From an uncultured virus (IMG/VR IMGVR_UViG_3300043410_000754) (taxonomy: Duplodnaviria > Heunggongvirae > Uroviricota > Caudoviricetes): a DNA stretch of 20,000 nt. Each line of letters starts with the position of its first letter. Within the stretch, counting starts at the first letter, position 1. The DNA lies in IMG/VR virus record IMGVR_UViG_3300043410_000754. One strand, written 5' to 3'. This document shows, piece by piece, positions 4,740-19,481 of this stretch. The notes beneath the pieces are model-generated. The model was given only the letters and a program-made list of their open reading frames with translations, did not search any database and was not told where the DNA came from. Position numbers and translations under genes: made by a program.

Positions 4740-4782
4740 TGTTAGGGCTCCGGTTTGTTGATGAATTTCATTGTTTTCTTAT

Positions 4783-4811
4783 ATTGTACCATAATGTTAT
4801 GTAAATGTCAA
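4783..4811 (-). promoter_or_regulatory. strong sigma70-type early promoter
   Basis: Minus strand TTGACA (4811-4806), 17 nt, TACAAT (4788-4783), with TGn extended -10. Confidence 0.85.
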
Positions 4812-4980
4812 GTGTTGTGGCTTCGGGTGAGGCAAGAGCAGAGTAAAGAAACATAACAATGTTAGGTGAGCAGGCACTAACCAAAATAAACGTAACAATA
4901 GCTTTGTTATGAAATGAGGTGGGGAATGTGATAAAAATAATGTAACATTGTGATGAAACGTAACAGGAAACGTAACGCGC

Positions 4981-4993
4981 TAAGTTGTTGATT
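4981..4993 (-). promoter_or_regulatory. IHF consensus site
   Basis: Reverse complement AATCAACAACTTA matches WATCAANNNNTTR. Confidence 0.6.
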
Positions 4994-5178
4994 TGATTGA
5001 AGAAAATGATGTTTGTTGATATATTGTTATAAAGTTACGTGTTTTTTAAAGTATGAGTGTGGCCTGCAAAAATTGGTGAGGTGCGAACTGCACTTGCTGA
5101 CACCCTCGGTCTTGAAAAAGTTCTCTCTTAATTTGCCAAAAAAACGTAACATGTAACATTAGGCGTTTTTTCCTTTAA

Positions 5179-5191
5179 AATCAACGACTTA
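5179..5191 (+). promoter_or_regulatory. IHF consensus site
   Basis: AATCAACGACTTA matches WATCAANNNNTTR. Confidence 0.6.
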
Positions 5192-5251
5192 GCGTGTTAC
5201 GTTACGTTTTTGGAAATGTAACGCGTTACGTTTTCGCATAACATTGTTAGA

Positions 5252-5345
5252 CCCTAAGCCTACCCAGAGAACTGGTACATTTCCGTAACATCGTATTGTT
5301 ACGTTTCCACCGAGCCCCTAAGCCTATCCAGAGAACTGGTACATT
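5252..5345. repeat. 30-bp direct repeat pair with 34-bp spacer
   Basis: CCCTAAGCCTAyCCAGAGAACTGGTACATT at 5252-5281 and 5316-5345, one mismatch. Confidence 0.9.
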
Positions 5346-5410
5346 AGCCCTACGCGGGAATGAATAGAAACGTAACAATGCCCTAACATTGTTAGGGTGC
5401 AAAACGTAAC

Positions 5411-5446
5411 AAAGCAAAAAGCCCGCAGGGCGAACCTTGCGGGCTT
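5411..5446 (-). terminator. intrinsic terminator after 5466..5828
   Basis: Minus strand AAGCCCGCAAGG-TTCG-CCCTGCGGGCTT followed by TTTGCTTT. Confidence 0.85.
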
Positions 5447-5465
5447 GGGGTTAGGTGGGAATGGG

Positions 5466-11811: not shown

Positions 11812-12008
11812 CGTTTGATTCCCGTGCGTTCGCGCACGTGCAAAAAGAAATCGCGAGAACTCGGCAAGAGCAGGTGGAATTCCTTGCCGCAGGAAGCGCA
11901 AAGACGTACGACGAGTACCAAAAAATCTGCGGAGTGATCCGGGGTCTTAACCTCGCAGATTCCACCATAAACGACCTCGTGCAAAGAATGGAAACATCTG
12001 ATGAGTGA
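11808..12008 (+). CDS. 66-aa helical hypothetical protein of the head module
   Basis: ATGA overlap with portal; AAGGA SD. Confidence 0.8.
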   Translation: MTFDSRAFAHVQKEIARTRQEQVEFLAAGSAKTYDEYQKICGVIRGLNLADSTINDLVQRMETSDE

Positions 12009-12411
12009 ATTCGACGTGAACGCCGTTGACCTGTCTGGAATCCTGAACAAGGACTCCGAACAGAAGGCCAAACAGCTCCCCGAGCCCGCAGGGTTCATGC
12101 TGCTCACCGTGGTCCCCGAGGCCATGGAGGAGTACGCGGATAGCGAGATTGGGATTGTGAAGTCCAGCGGTGACATCTGGCGTGAGGAAATGCTCACTCC
12201 GGTGCTGTTCGTGGTCAAGATGGGCCCCGAGGCTTATCAAGACAAAACGCGGTTCCCTAGTGGACCTCGCTGCAAGGTGGGCGACTTCGTTGTCGTTCGC
12301 CCCAATTCAGGCACCCGCCTGAAGATTCATGGCCGAGAGTTCCGCATCATCAATGATGATTCGGTCGAGGCTGTTGTTGAAGACCCGCGTGGTATCACCC
12401 GCGCTGCTTAA
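12001..12411 (+). CDS. groES: GroES/Cpn10-like co-chaperonin
   Basis: P-G--LL, GIV mobile loop, VVKMGP, KVGDFVVV, G-EFRIINDDSVEAVV pattern. Confidence 0.88.
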   Translation: MSEFDVNAVDLSGILNKDSEQKAKQLPEPAGFMLLTVVPEAMEEYADSEIGIVKSSGDIWREEMLTPVLFVVKMGPEAYQDKTRFPSGPRCKVGDFVVVRPNSGTRLKIHGREFRIINDDSVEAVVEDPRGITRAA

Positions 12412-14846: not shown

Positions 14847-15758
14847 ATGGCAATTTCACGCGCACAACTACTCAAAGAACTCCTGCCCGGTCTTAATGCA
14901 CTGTTTGGCCTTGAGTACGCCCGTTACGGCGAGGAGCACAAGGAAATCTACGAAACCGAGACCTCGGAGCGTAGCTTTGAAGAGGAAACCAAGCTGTCTG
15001 GCTTCTCCGCCGCTCCGGTGAAGAACGAAGGCTCTGCGATTGCTTATGACAACGCGCAGGAAGCGTGGACGACTCGCTACAACCACGAGACCATCGCCCT
15101 GGGTTTCTCGATCACTGAAGAAGCGATCGAAGATAACCTGTACGACAGCTTGTCTGCTCGCTACACCAAGGGTCTGGCCCGTGCCATGGCATACACCAAG
15201 CAGGTGAAAGCCGCTTCTGTCCTGAACAACGGCTTCAGCTCTGCCTTCACCGGCGGCGACGGCGTTGCTCTGTTCAGTGCAGCCCACCCCCTGGTGAGCG
15301 GCGGTACCAACGCTAACACCCCCACAACCCAAGCCGACCTGAACGAGACTTCCCTGGAAGCCGCCGTTATTCAGATCGCCGGTTGGACGGATGAACGTGG
15401 TCTGCTGATCGCTGCCAAGCCCAAGAAGCTGGTAATCCCGCCTGCTCTGCAATTCGTTGCTACTCGTCTGCTGGAAACCGAACTCCGTGTCGGTACCAAC
15501 AACAACGACATCAACGCGATCAAGAGCAATGGTGCGATCCCCGATGGTTACACCATCAACCACTTCTTGACCGACAACAACGCATGGTTCCTGACGACTG
15601 ACGTTCCCAACGGTCTGAAGCACTTCGTTCGTACCCCGCTGCAAAACAGCATGGACGGCGACTTCGACACCGGTAACGTCCGTTACAAGGCCCGTGAGCG
15701 TTACAGCTTCGGCTGGTCGGACCCTCTGGGTGTGTTCGGGTCTTCGGGCTCGTTCTGA
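14847..15758 (+). CDS. major capsid protein (HK97 fold, Mu gpT-like family)
   Basis: MAISRAQLLKELLPGLNALFG, LGFSITEEAIED, PKKLVIPPAL, DFDTGNVRYKARERYSFGWSD; TAAGGAG SD; followed by terminator. Confidence 0.93.
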   Translation: MAISRAQLLKELLPGLNALFGLEYARYGEEHKEIYETETSERSFEEETKLSGFSAAPVKNEGSAIAYDNAQEAWTTRYNHETIALGFSITEEAIEDNLYDSLSARYTKGLARAMAYTKQVKAASVLNNGFSSAFTGGDGVALFSAAHPLVSGGTNANTPTTQADLNETSLEAAVIQIAGWTDERGLLIAAKPKKLVIPPALQFVATRLLETELRVGTNNNDINAIKSNGAIPDGYTINHFLTDNNAWFLTTDVPNGLKHFVRTPLQNSMDGDFDTGNVRYKARERYSFGWSDPLGVFGSSGSF

Positions 15759-15759
15759 T

Positions 15760-15784
15760 AAAAGGGGGCTTCGGCCCCCTTTTT
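15760..15784 (+). terminator. intrinsic (bidirectional) terminator after MCP
   Basis: AAAAGGGGGC-TTCG-GCCCCCTTTTT. Confidence 0.9.
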
Positions 15785-15786
15785 AG

Positions 15787-15814
15787 TTGACACGCCATTC
15801 TTTTGGTGTATATT
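15787..15814 (+). promoter_or_regulatory. sigma70-like promoter
   Basis: TTGACA, 16 nt, TATATT directly after the terminator. Confidence 0.6.
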
Positions 15815-15820
15815 GGCGGC

Positions 15821-15895
15821 ATCTGGGTGATCCGCCTTGCCGCCACTGCCCCAGCAGACGATGCAACGATTGGCAAGGTACTTTTGCATAAGGAA
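15821..15895 (+). ncRNA. candidate structured leader RNA (interlocked helices); possibly the Mu-gpT-DE motif
   Basis: Three complementary pairs in interleaved order; downstream of a Mu-gpT-like capsid gene. Confidence 0.55.
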
Positions 15896-15903
15896 TCTTT
15901 GCT

Positions 15904-16587
15904 ATGGCACGCGCAACATTCGACGGTCCGGTCCTCGTTGGTGACAACCGTTTTGGCCCCCTCCGTAACGTCGGCACCGCCGAACTCGTTCAGGGCATTA
16001 CCCTCAACTTTGGCAACGTGACCCCCGCTACGGCTGGGTACGGCGGCGGCTCCGGCATTTTTGCCGGCAGCAACAACATCCTGAACACCCCGGCGCAGGT
16101 CTATACCCCTGGCTCCAACCCCCCCACCGCGCAGACGATCACCGCTGACGTGGTCAACGCTTCCTCGTTGTATCGTGGCGCTGTGTTCTATGTGCCGGTT
16201 GGCGCTGATCTGCATGACCTGCTGATCGACGTGCAGGCAGTCCCCACGTTTGGTTCCGGTTCGTTCGGTAACCTCCAGTTCTTCTGCTCCAACAAGTTTG
16301 ACGGCGCGGCTGGCAGTTACTTCCAAACTGGCGCTACGGGCGGTATTGGTCGTACGGCGCTATCCACGTTTACCGCCGCACAGATGGCTGCGCAGCAATC
16401 TACGTCCGCCGATATTCTGCAGGGTAGCGGCCAGCCGAACGTTTCTCAGGTTGTCGTGACTTGCGTTATCAACGGCACGACCATGAACTCGCTCAACGGC
16501 GGCATCATCAACATCACGCTGCGCTACGGTGTGCCCGATAACAACATCGGCAACGCCACCACGTACCCCTACGGTAACCTGGACTGA
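15904..16587 (+). CDS. probable virion structural protein, 227 aa
   Basis: AAGGA SD; Gly/Thr/Asn-rich; MARATFDGPV start. Confidence 0.75.
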   Translation: MARATFDGPVLVGDNRFGPLRNVGTAELVQGITLNFGNVTPATAGYGGGSGIFAGSNNILNTPAQVYTPGSNPPTAQTITADVVNASSLYRGAVFYVPVGADLHDLLIDVQAVPTFGSGSFGNLQFFCSNKFDGAAGSYFQTGATGGIGRTALSTFTAAQMAAQQSTSADILQGSGQPNVSQVVVTCVINGTTMNSLNGGIINITLRYGVPDNNIGNATTYPYGNLD

Positions 16588-16594
16588 TGGTTGA

Positions 16595-16619
16595 CGGGGG
16601 CTCCGGCCCCCGCCTTTTT
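16595..16619 (+). terminator. intrinsic terminator
   Basis: CGGGGGC-TCCG-GCCCCCG then CCTTTTT. Confidence 0.7.
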
Positions 16620-17160: not shown

Positions 17161-17415
17161 ATGGACCCGGTACATATCCTGTGGAGTAGCGTGCTGTCGT
17201 TCCTGACCGCGATCGTTATGTGGACGCTGAAAGAGAAGTCGGCGGACATCAAGCGATTGGAAGTGTTGTTGAGCAAGACTCGTGAAGAACACGCACGTGA
17301 CTACGTGACCAAGGCTGATGTCCATAGCGATATCAACCGTGTGCTGTCTCGATTGGACCGCTTGGAGGGCAAGCTCGACGAGTTCATGAAGGAGCAGAGA
17401 AGTGCCCTCGGCTAA
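17161..17415 (+). CDS. 84-aa protein, N-terminal TM helix plus coiled coil (holin-like topology)
   Basis: ILWSSVLSFLTAIVMW followed by heptads; function inferred. Confidence 0.7.
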   Translation: MDPVHILWSSVLSFLTAIVMWTLKEKSADIKRLEVLLSKTREEHARDYVTKADVHSDINRVLSRLDRLEGKLDEFMKEQRSALG

Positions 17416-17803
17416 TAAGCGTCAACACAATCTGATGGCGATGGTCGCTAACGACCCCGCTGCAGCAAAGCGGACCGGCATCCCCCAGTCCGTGGGTAAG
17501 GAGTTCGTGCAAGCGGACAAAGGACTGAAGTTGAAAGGGAGCGCCGAACAGCGCCCTGATCGGCAAGTGGTTAACCGTTCCGAAACCAGCCACGGCAAGT
17601 CCGGGCTATTCAAACAAGGAGGCCTTATGGCTACGAAGAAAATGGCATCTGGTGGTAGCGTTGACGCTGGTAACAGCACGAAGATGCAAAAAGTTAAAAC
17701 GGCTGCTCCCAGCCGCGATGGTGTTGCTTCCAAGGGCAAGACCAAAGGTAAGCAAGTTTCCATGCCCGGTAACAAAGGCATGAAAAAAGGCGGCAAGTGC
17801 TGA
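17402..17803 (+). CDS. basic protein with xxGG motifs and DGVASKGKTKG
   Basis: GTG start with AAGGAG SD; second in-frame ATG at 17627 with AAGGAGG. Confidence 0.75.
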   Translation: MPSANKRQHNLMAMVANDPAAAKRTGIPQSVGKEFVQADKGLKLKGSAEQRPDRQVVNRSETSHGKSGLFKQGGLMATKKMASGGSVDAGNSTKMQKVKTAAPSRDGVASKGKTKGKQVSMPGNKGMKKGGKC

Positions 17804-17817
17804 TTTAGGAGATCACG

Positions 17818-18351
17818 ATGCCTGAAATGGACCCCTTAGAAGAAGCGAATGCGAGCGAAGACCCGATTGCGGCTTTGAACAAGCGCAAAGGGTGGACCGG
17901 CACGGACGAAGAGCCCGCTGCCCCCGCTGTGTCTAAACCCAGCTTCAAAGAGGCGTTCGCTTCTGCGCGTCGTGCTGGCGACAAAACCTTTGAGTGGAAC
18001 GGCAAGAAGTTCACGACCGAGCTGGCAACCGAAAAGAAGCCCGCGCCGAGAGCTGAACCCAAAGCTGAGGCGGAAAAGCAAGCTCCCAAAGCTCCCCTGC
18101 GGCAGGAGACCATGCAGGAACGAGCTGAGAGCTATGTTGCCAAACGCGCTGCGCAACGGGCAGCGGACGCCGCTGCAAAGAGTGCCGCTGCCGCAAATAA
18201 GCCCGCTGTGGCTATCCCCAGCCGTGGCCGCATCGACACGTCTCGGGTCAATCCGAACACGCTGTTGCCGATGAAGAAGGGTGGTGTGACAGCCTCCCGT
18301 CGCGCCGACGGTATCGCCTCTCGGGGCAAAACTCGTGGAAAGATTTACTGA
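17818..18351 (+). CDS. 177-aa protein with shared C-terminal tail
   Basis: AGGAG SD; FKEAFASARRAGDKTFEWNGKKFTT module; ends MKKGGVTASRRADGIASRGKTRGKIY. Confidence 0.85.
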   Translation: MPEMDPLEEANASEDPIAALNKRKGWTGTDEEPAAPAVSKPSFKEAFASARRAGDKTFEWNGKKFTTELATEKKPAPRAEPKAEAEKQAPKAPLRQETMQERAESYVAKRAAQRAADAAAKSAAAANKPAVAIPSRGRIDTSRVNPNTLLPMKKGGVTASRRADGIASRGKTRGKIY

Positions 18352-18352
18352 C

Positions 18353-18634
18353 ATGGGAAAAGGTATCTACACCGCCGACATGGGCCAACCGCCCATGGAC
18401 CCCGAAGTGGCTCCCCCGTCTAAACCCAAGGCCAAGAAGGAAGCTCCGAAGCCGAAGGAAAAGACCAAGGGCGACTCCGTTTGGACGGAGCAGTCTGGCA
18501 TTCCGGTTCCGCAAGAACCCGAAGTCGCCAAGCGCAAAGGTGGCTATGTTGCTGCAGCCGACGGGATCGCTTCTCGCGGCAAGACTCGCGGCACCATGGT
18601 CATGTGCGGTGGCGGCATGGCCAAAAGGAAGTAA
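18353..18634 (+). CDS. 93-aa protein with shared C-terminal tail
   Basis: ATG separated by 1 nt from upstream stop; KRKGGYVAAADGIASRGKTRG. Confidence 0.8.
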   Translation: MGKGIYTADMGQPPMDPEVAPPSKPKAKKEAPKPKEKTKGDSVWTEQSGIPVPQEPEVAKRKGGYVAAADGIASRGKTRGTMVMCGGGMAKRK

Positions 18635-18636
18635 TC

Positions 18637-19002
18637 ATGCCGAAGCCCACCGAGGAAAGCCGGGAAAGCGACATCGCCAAGCTATCTCTTGAGCTGAAAA
18701 AGCTCAATGACGAACACAAGCGTGAGGGCGCGGAGCGCCTGTCAAAGTCTTCCAACGCCGCCGACAGAGAAATGGCGGAAAACTGGAAGAAAAACCTAGC
18801 TAACGATACGTCCACCATGATCCAAACCCGTGAGGGTTCTGGGCGACGTATTGGCCCCGATGGGCGCCCTGTAGGCCCCGAGTTGAAAAAGCTCGGACAT
18901 GGAGAGTACCAAACCGAAAAGAAAGCTAAAGGCGGTATGACCGCTTCCCGCCGTGCTGATGGCATCGCCTCTCGCGGCAAGACTCGGGGGAAATATCTAT
19001 GA
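18637..19002 (+). CDS. 121-aa protein with shared C-terminal tail
   Basis: ORF trimmed to ATG 18637 (AAGGA SD); ends KAKGGMTASRRADGIASRGKTRGKYL. Confidence 0.85.
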   Translation: MPKPTEESRESDIAKLSLELKKLNDEHKREGAERLSKSSNAADREMAENWKKNLANDTSTMIQTREGSGRRIGPDGRPVGPELKKLGHGEYQTEKKAKGGMTASRRADGIASRGKTRGKYL

Positions 19003-19481
19003 TGGCCAGCCGGGGTATGGGCGCAATTCGTGCATCCAAGATGCCGAAGAAGGAAGTTATTCACCGCAAGGACAAGCCGCAAGACGTGGACATGTACGCT
19101 GCTGGTGGCATGACCGTGCGTAACGCCCGCGCCCCCGGCGCGATCGAGAACGCTGACACGGTTGACAAACCTAAAGGCCCCGGTAACCCCGCAGGTAGGT
19201 ACAGCACGCTGCTGGACTCAGACCTGCAAAAAGCCAAGGCCAAGGCCCAGAGCATGGGGCTCAGCAAAGAAGTCCAAGCCATCGGCGAGGAAGAAGCCCT
19301 GCGTGGCCGACTCAAAGGCATGAAGCGTGGGGGCAATGTGTGGTCGGAGCCGCGCCCCCAGAAACTTGGCAAGTCCAAGGAGCTGACGGAGTACCAGAAG
19401 CACACTGCCCAGTCCCGCGCTCGTCGCAAGGGTCGGGCGTACCCCAACCTCATCGACAACATGTGGGCCACAAAGGAGTGA
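18999..19481 (+). CDS. 160-aa basic protein with YAAGG/MKRGG motifs
   Basis: ATGA overlap; C-terminal GRAYPNLIDNMWA. Confidence 0.8.
   Translation: MMASRGMGAIRASKMPKKEVIHRKDKPQDVDMYAAGGMTVRNARAPGAIENADTVDKPKGPGNPAGRYSTLLDSDLQKAKAKAQSMGLSKEVQAIGEEEALRGRLKGMKRGGNVWSEPRPQKLGKSKELTEYQKHTAQSRARRKGRAYPNLIDNMWATKE

Follow-up and report, generated by a model that had tools for sequence, protein, structure and literature searches.

The interval between the major capsid gene and the next gene of this phage raises a question: what kind of RNA is encoded there, and on what does it act? The window, meaning the whole 20,000-nucleotide stretch of DNA that was analyzed, holds a tailed-phage head module with terminase, portal, a GroES-like gene, and a capsid gene with Phage_capsid_4 and Mu-like_gpT matches (Pfam and PHROGs). 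A reading made without database searches (here, the sequence-only reading) had proposed a chained double-pseudoknot RNA after the capsid gene, with a translational switch, a ribozyme, or an assembly/packaging RNA as its possible function. The features on which the analysis draws are these.

14847..15758, + strand: major capsid protein gene (Pfam Phage_capsid_4, E 1.9e-14; Mu-like_gpT, E 1.7e-9)
15764..15784, + strand: intrinsic-terminator-like hairpin, GGGGGC-TTCG-GCCCCC followed by T5, the putative end of the capsid transcript
15787..15814, + strand: sigma70-type promoter with 11/12 consensus matches
15823..15854, + strand: P1, the 5' pseudoknot, in which CUGGG (15823-27) pairs with CCCAG (15850-54), the loop of P4
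15834..15879, + strand: P2, the main 9-bp stem (15834-42 with 15871-79), in which CCUUGCC (15835-41) pairs with GGCAAGG (15872-78), extended by the G-U pairs G15834-U15879 and G15842-U15871
15845..15869, + strand: conserved core, common with Mu-gpT-DE, made up of A15845, P4 (CUG 15846-48 with CAG 15855-57), AC (15858-59), and CGA (15867-69)
15861..15889, + strand: P3, the 3' pseudoknot, in which AUGCAA (15861-66) pairs with UUGCAU (15884-89) and abuts the Shine-Dalgarno (SD) sequence
15890..15894, + strand: SD sequence AAGGA, read from the sequence
15904..16587, + strand: the putatively regulated gene, encoding a 227-aa protein whose model (pLDDT 84) is a single jelly roll bearing an arm at the N terminus
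16595..16612, + strand: terminator-like hairpin after this cement-like gene

All three helices named by the sequence-only reading, P1 to P3, were found exactly where it had placed them, and the order P1a-P2a-P1b-P3a-P2b-P3b was correct. The double pseudoknot itself is conserved and supported by covariation, although the original description overlooked P4, a 3-bp helix with a 6-nt pseudoknotted loop that, by comparison of homologues, consists nearly entirely of P1b. With P4 included, the ~70-nt element is predicted to be one hairpin (P2, an asymmetric internal loop, and P4) with a pseudoknot at each end, such that the terminal loop would pair with the 5' end of the element and the internal loop with its 3' end. 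The SD sequence lies 11 nt past P2. Perfect 5-, 7-, and 6-bp helices in the claimed order arose in 3/20,000 dinucleotide shuffles of the 75-mer, and only two of the 75-nt segments taken at a step of 5 along both strands of the 20 kb passed the same test, both overlapping the site. Nested folding of the element was unremarkable (z scores of 0.08 and 0.40), as expected for a pseudoknot. The calculated duplex energy in the window is -4.6 kcal/mol for P3 versus -14.5 kcal/mol for P2. Loop-loop dimerization via palindromic P4 loops was also considered and was dropped, as the CCCAG loop of the window is not palindromic.

The fold was next compared across homologues, in which P1, P2, and P3 all covary. 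Among the best 80 of 601 loci, chosen by capsid similarity alone, 68 carried the element: 56 were recovered with a scripted anchor, 9 with our window-type model R1 (four of these only at E 0.03-0.83), and 3 by eye. The remaining 12 loci comprised 7 that end too early, 3 without a cement-type gene in the retrieved stretch, and 2 (L068 and L071) with the gene but without the element. We note that in L068, the one of these two leaders that was read (L068:3500-3610), the cement-type gene stands behind a different leader that lacks the core (fold z score of -0.34) and has no Rfam match. P1 had a perfect upstream complement in 238/239 instances versus 11/2861 mismatched controls; search patterns fixed P1 and P4 in 240 loci (P1 only partly in one further set), and the anchor fixed the outer C-G, AC, and GA bases, so that part of the constancy of the core bases stems from the anchor itself. 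Unbiased support for the parts fixed by pattern thus comes from the capsid-selected loci, the cultured phages, and the Rfam consensus; swapped or altered P1 pairs were seen in the first two of these sources.

When 103 sequences were aligned and trimmed at sequence anchors, pairing held in 93.4% of cells, and 11/12 core pairs changed on both sides. The covariation score of 0.842 was reached by 0/500 shuffles, which ignore relatedness, and slid registers scored 0.07 to 0.12. For P2, 9/9 pairs showed changes on both sides in the sequence-anchored alignment, and in 95 disjoint nearest pairs, 165 double changes led from one Watson-Crick (WC) pair to another and 59 further changes preserved pairing; pairing was broken by 89 changes (66 single and 23 double), which count against the model. 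The middle pair of P4 was UA in 51, AU in 49, CG in 2, and GC in 1 of the 103 sequences. P3 formed at least 5 WC pairs in 171/178 instances versus 684/4403 controls, with its 3' end 0 to 1 nt before the SD sequence in 118/171. R1 retrieved one strong copy each from HTVC023P, DSL-LC04, and one complete IMG/VR genome (3/3 genomes with a strong match). The R1 search of the Pag-Yong1 genome returned no element match, nor was one found at the QDWS535 locus.

The cultured relatives of the window phage include Pelagibacter phages HTVC023P and HTVC027P, DSL-LC04, and Roseobacter phages CRP-901/902; the capsid protein is 64% identical to that of HTVC023P and 57% identical to that of CRP-901. When host assignment was attempted, capsid matches spread over bins of many unrelated phyla, which we read as mis-binned phage contigs. 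The element belongs to phages abundant in lakes and oceans. Several observations concern other parts of the window. The GroES-like co-chaperonin gene lies within the head module (12001-12411; PHROG E 8e-8), and the cultured relatives have one too. Positions 17402-19481 hold several consecutive small basic ORFs with a near-identical terminal motif (SRRADGIASRGKTRG-like); one has a weak PHROG match to a virion structural protein, and none matched a Pfam family. The long stretch at 4740-5460, with no ORF of at least 60 aa beyond 4804, contains divergent promoter-like sites (4758-4785, +; 4811-4783, -; 4997-5025, +; 5153-5181, +) and a perfect inverted repeat (5380-5398), and is possibly a control region or origin.

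The sequence-only reading had tentatively linked the element to Mu-gpT-DE, an RNA motif found downstream of Mu-gpT-like capsid genes. The motif is reportedly from Weinberg 2017 (PMC5737381), although the name is absent from the main text of that paper. This link proved right in part. By score it fails: no Rfam family reached its gathering threshold in the window, and RF03012, the Mu-gpT-DE model (threshold, 49 bits), was absent up to E 10. RF03012 likewise retrieved 0/5 records above its cutoff (the nearest record, G001, had no match) and 0/20 homologous loci. As a positive control, the same model scored 72.3 bits in CRP-901/902 and 74.5 bits in L397, which overturned our first reading of the element as unrelated to Mu-gpT-DE. 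Subthreshold Rfam matches near the site (DicF at 26.5 of 48 bits, STnc320, sraA, and others) were set aside as promoter or terminator look-alikes.

By position and core, the link holds. Within this phage group, Mu-gpT-DE members occupy the corresponding site ahead of the same cement-type genes, with downstream protein families in common. The window element follows a capsid gene with a Mu-like_gpT match (Pfam E 1.7e-9) and precedes a cement-type gene, while 106/114 Mu-gpT-DE-type loci have a capsid gene nearby on the same strand. Their core runs as in the window: P2, a bulged A, a C-W-G helix, AC, the loop strand, (A/C)GA, and P2'. The peripheries differ. Mu-gpT-DE has an extended inner stem-loop where the window has the 5' pseudoknot P1; its SD sequence lies inside P2 (a CCUG/CAGG outer helix), whereas the 9-bp P2 of the window contains none; and its P3 pairs with the AUG, in contrast to a position just 5' of the SD sequence. 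The Rfam model, typed as an sRNA, comprises 53 positions and 9 nested pairs, stops at the AUG, and lacks the start-codon pseudoknot. In the reverse direction, R1 matched 2/16 short-loop Mu-gpT-DE-type loci, in the right place and weakly (E 0.038 and 0.18). Because true members sit at the same site and the core is common to both, we take the window element to be an elaborated variant of Mu-gpT-DE and not a member by score. In Table S1 of Rivas 2020 (PMC7657543), Mu-gpT-DE appears under loop and non-WC covariations and not under new pseudoknots. The original ZWD alignment, as given in the same source, has 11 bp, two pairs more than that of Rfam, and these two pairs may bear on the start-codon helix.

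Sorted by periphery, the loci fall into three types.

Type A, 167 loci, the window among them: P1 present, P3 beside the SD sequence
Type B, 64 loci: P1 present, P3 on the start codon
Type C, 114 loci, equal to Mu-gpT-DE: no P1, SD sequence within P2, P3 on the start codon

A further 8 loci fit none of these. On a 215-row capsid tree (FastTree), types A to C require 17 changes, and downstream protein families are common to them; P1 was lost or gained repeatedly (15 changes) while the core persisted. We read the three types as one superfamily with interchangeable peripheries, a grouping drawn from sequence comparison. The short leader after the capsid gene of L383 retains the P3-SD portion, but its 5' half seems reduced; neither R1 nor RF03012 detected it, and it is possibly a fourth type.

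The principal new result is the start-codon pairing of types B and C. In type B, GCCR faces UGGC in 61/61 Met-Ala starts; opposite the UGGG of the Met-Gly starts (n = 12), we found CCCA in 9, UCCA in 1, and ACCA in 2, such that 2/12 Met-Gly loci break the covarying pair (ACCA:UGGG). All 114 type C loci were concordant (90 GCCR:UGGC and 24 CCCA:UGGG); these distinct loci are the 111 parsed from 120 plus L326, L397, and L398, and the search pattern left both the covarying base and the start free. Between the two pairings, 11 changes are needed among 63 tree rows, with concordance in 7/7 independent contrasts (p 0.016). The start-pairing loci have Ala or Gly at codon 2 in 178/178 cases, and 9/167 window-type loci have Ser, Thr, or Pro there. 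In type C, the SD sequence and AUG are both paired and the P2 core has only 4 bp. By this comparison, the element extends into the site of initiation of one particular gene, and in all three architectures the fold reaches the ribosome-binding region, where it abuts the SD sequence, covers the AUG, or covers both. Since base changes in the RNA track those at codon 2 of the downstream gene, the family is probably a leader that acts in cis on translation initiation.

The transcription signals place the element at the 5' end of the downstream mRNA. The capsid terminator named by the sequence-only reading stands as a hairpin with its T5 tract (fold z score of -3.37), but it was not listed by the terminator scan. 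The promoter was confirmed as TTGACA-16-TATATT and, lying just upstream, would start transcription near 15821, two bases before P1. Among the 167 window-type homologues, TA...T hexamers end 7, 8, and 9 nt before P1 in 21, 21, and 63, respectively; 37 have none. Where the capsid gene is present in the locus, inserted genes put 43/263 instances at least 200 nt away from it; these instances still directly precede a gene with the same N-terminal arm. The element thus travels with the cement-like gene and not with the capsid gene. A general monocistronic cement unit was unsupported, as a strict terminator test after the cement gene was positive in 20/120, 0/31, and 13/72 loci of the three types (window type first).

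Two kinds of insertion were seen at this site. A 23-aa PqqA-family peptide gene lies between the capsid terminator and the leader in L008:3041-3109 and L077:1706-1774 (Pfam E 3e-10 and 6e-11), and ORFs of ~190 to 250 aa often directly follow the capsid terminator (L013:3085-3825, L046:2624-3199, L032, L068, and others). Some of these ORFs presumably resemble homing endonucleases; the site looks like an insertion hotspot.

Published expression data are available for HTVC027P. Its cement gene, gp62, is late, with mean TPM values of 1,501, 12,786, 22,241, and 28,568 at the last four time points; those of the capsid gene at the same points are 3,102, 10,371, 33,390, and 74,585 (PMC12753301, Table S3). 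In these data, cement mRNA reaches ~0.4 times the capsid mRNA at the last time point, with no surplus evident, and the differing kinetics fit a separate promoter without proving one. RNA contigs of relatives gave thin cover of the element in 2/4 runs, without ends or strand.

The product of the downstream gene is probably a capsid cement or decoration protein, given its predicted fold and its annotation in relatives: the gene at the same site is called "cement protein" in DSL-LC04 and "minor capsid protein" in Pag-Yong1. The best structural match of the 227-aa model, chain H of the Pam1 capsid, is middling (Z 6.9, with an rmsd of 6.3 across 134 aligned residues); chains of GP4, KHP40 cement, and BPP-1 reach Z 5.2 to 6.0, and non-cement jelly rolls score alike. 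Foldseek with this model gave no match at E 0.001, PDB sequence searches retrieved nothing, Pfam and PHROGs offered no family, and the ESM Atlas returned only unnamed viral clusters. A complex prediction for capsid plus cement scored 0.00 and weighs neither way. The downstream protein bodies range from 57 to 315 aa and form 22 unlinked groups for residues 21 onward, only the N-terminal arm being shared; the capsid protein, in contrast, is conserved throughout. The arm is not consistently basic and occurs in several dissimilar types.

Of the functions proposed by the sequence-only reading, the translational switch is the best supported, while the ribozyme and the assembly/packaging RNA found no support. 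Our best guess, with a probability of roughly 0.5, is a protein-stabilized OFF switch. In this model, the cement-gene mRNA would have the element as its entire 5' leader, which would serve as a cis translational operator. Transcription would start 0 to 3 nt before P1; P2 and P4 would then fold as a hairpin, with the P4 loop capped by P1 where Mu-gpT-DE has an extended stem-loop. P3, as a weaker duplex than P2, would be the switchable part of the fold, closing against the SD sequence in the window type or on the AUG in the two other types, and the folded state would block or trap 30S initiation. A phage protein would recognize the A / C-G / AC / (A,C)GA core and stabilize P3. The likeliest ligand would be free cement protein, bound via its N-terminal arm once capsid sites are full, followed by a capsid or scaffold protein, and the outcome would be cement kept in step with capsids. 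The constant unpaired core suggests a ligand, and a phage protein is favored over a metabolite by the single gene context and the virion product; we consider a protein ligand about an even bet. As cement bodies vary widely, autogenous binding would rest on the short arm. Against the OFF switch, the SD sequence and AUG of the window type are unpaired and P3 only abuts the SD sequence, such that repression in the window would be an extrapolation from its relatives. The same side of the balance holds the L068 gene with its different leader, the negative results for Pag-Yong1 and the QDWS535 locus, the two ACCA:UGGG loci, and the lack of a cement mRNA surplus in HTVC027P.

There is precedent for such control. 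Autoregulation of the P22 scaffolding protein provides a phage leader analogue. The E. coli rpsO/S15 and alpha-operon/S4 leaders are likewise pseudoknotted over the initiation region (PMC3985624). As described there, the rpsO pseudoknot holds the SD sequence in a loop and traps a pre-initiation complex; type B resembles it in having the SD sequence in a connecting loop and in pairing into the coding region. The logic proposed for the phage leader is the same, with excess product acting as the repressor. The phage leader differs from both in lacking sequence or Rfam similarity to them, and the virion protein that it would control is not known to bind RNA. The T4 gene 32 leader and the phage GP20-a/-b motifs are also phage leaders tied to one gene, and gene 32 reportedly autoregulates at the level of translation (PMC10690425). 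Gene 32, GP20-a/-b, and P22 involve different genes and structures, and the present leader has no Rfam match to them.

Because both the SD sequence and the AUG are unpaired in the window type, a serious rival is a fold that binds no ligand and sets a fixed translation rate or delay, with P1 hiding the 5' end from decay enzymes; in the window type, it could even act as a ribosome standby site. P1 indeed begins ~0 to 3 nt after the inferred start, and in 113/121 CCGGG-type leaders (e.g., L038, L041, and L044) a different 5' hairpin is possible, at the expense of P1 and the base of P2, which could delay folding. This hairpin is available to 15/112 CUAGG types and to 0/20 window-like CUGGG leaders; L027 has a compensatory version of it. 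P1, however, changes 15 times on the tree while the core persists, and an RNA that only sets a rate would have no need of identical unpaired bases (A, AC, and GA) in three architectures. Mu-gpT-DE, with its paired SD sequence and AUG and 4-bp P2 core, suits a switch. We regard a ligand-free tuner or stabilizer as unlikely. The constant core, held despite varied downstream proteins and in phages of different hosts (Pelagibacter and Roseobacter), would also suit a riboswitch in which a small molecule or ion stabilizes P3 and turns cement synthesis off, as would a compact pseudoknot touching the SD sequence or AUG. The element is nevertheless found with one gene type only, a virion protein, once per genome and with no metabolic gene context (the genome-collection loci were selected by capsid gene), and only ~8 to 10 bases are conserved. 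The class models of known riboswitches and self-cleaving ribozymes in Rfam 15 gave no match. A riboswitch is, in our estimation, quite improbable. Doubtful to the same degree is its extension to the whole Mu-gpT-DE superfamily as a virus-encoded riboswitch class, with the core as ligand pocket linking a metabolite or ion to synthesis of a capsid-stabilizing protein. The three interchangeable expression platforms that such a class would have (P3 next to the SD sequence, P3 on the AUG, and SD sequence and AUG both paired) share these long odds.

Small ribozymes have double pseudoknots with a short 3-bp helix, as does this ~70-nt element, and self-cleavage could process a capsid-cement transcript. 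The helix order is nonetheless unlike the topology of HDV-like ribozymes, no Rfam ribozyme matched even at E 10, the terminator and promoter already separate the capsid and cement genes, and cleavage would leave the start-codon covariation unexplained; we consider a ribozyme very improbable. A discrete assembly/packaging RNA or trans-acting small RNA would agree with the element having its own promoter, adjoining the capsid gene, and being typed as sRNA by Rfam in the case of Mu-gpT-DE. Such an RNA is equally hard to credit, as no terminator separates the element from the ORF, the spacing to the AUG is near constant, two types pair into the coding sequence, and the element follows the cement gene where other genes are inserted.

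The family is of a kind already known, as an orphan Rfam motif; its double-pseudoknot form fits no Rfam model. Our literature search, which covered the main text of Weinberg 2017 and the smaller part of the Fremin 2023 files, found Mu-gpT-DE named in one work only and no paper describing a double-pseudoknot leader. In the part of the Fremin 2023 supplements that was covered (PMC10690425; 8,495 IMG/VR candidates), six short motifs of the element were absent. No case of a phage matching a cement or decoration protein to shell number in this way was found in the literature searched, which excluded most subscription papers.

Taken together, an orphan Rfam "sRNA" gains a testable role, and its family is broader than the Rfam model shows and richer in pseudoknots. 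Among cultured phages, HTVC023P, HTVC027P, and DSL-LC04 carry versions of the leader and CRP-901/902 the Mu-gpT-DE form, which makes the proposal accessible to experiment. If the riboswitch reading were true, a metabolite or ion would be linked to capsid stabilization in a phage group that ranks among the most abundant in aquatic habitats. For the protein-stabilized OFF switch, if a virion protein is the ligand, the leader would be a compact example of how a phage matches an accessory capsid protein to the number of shells.
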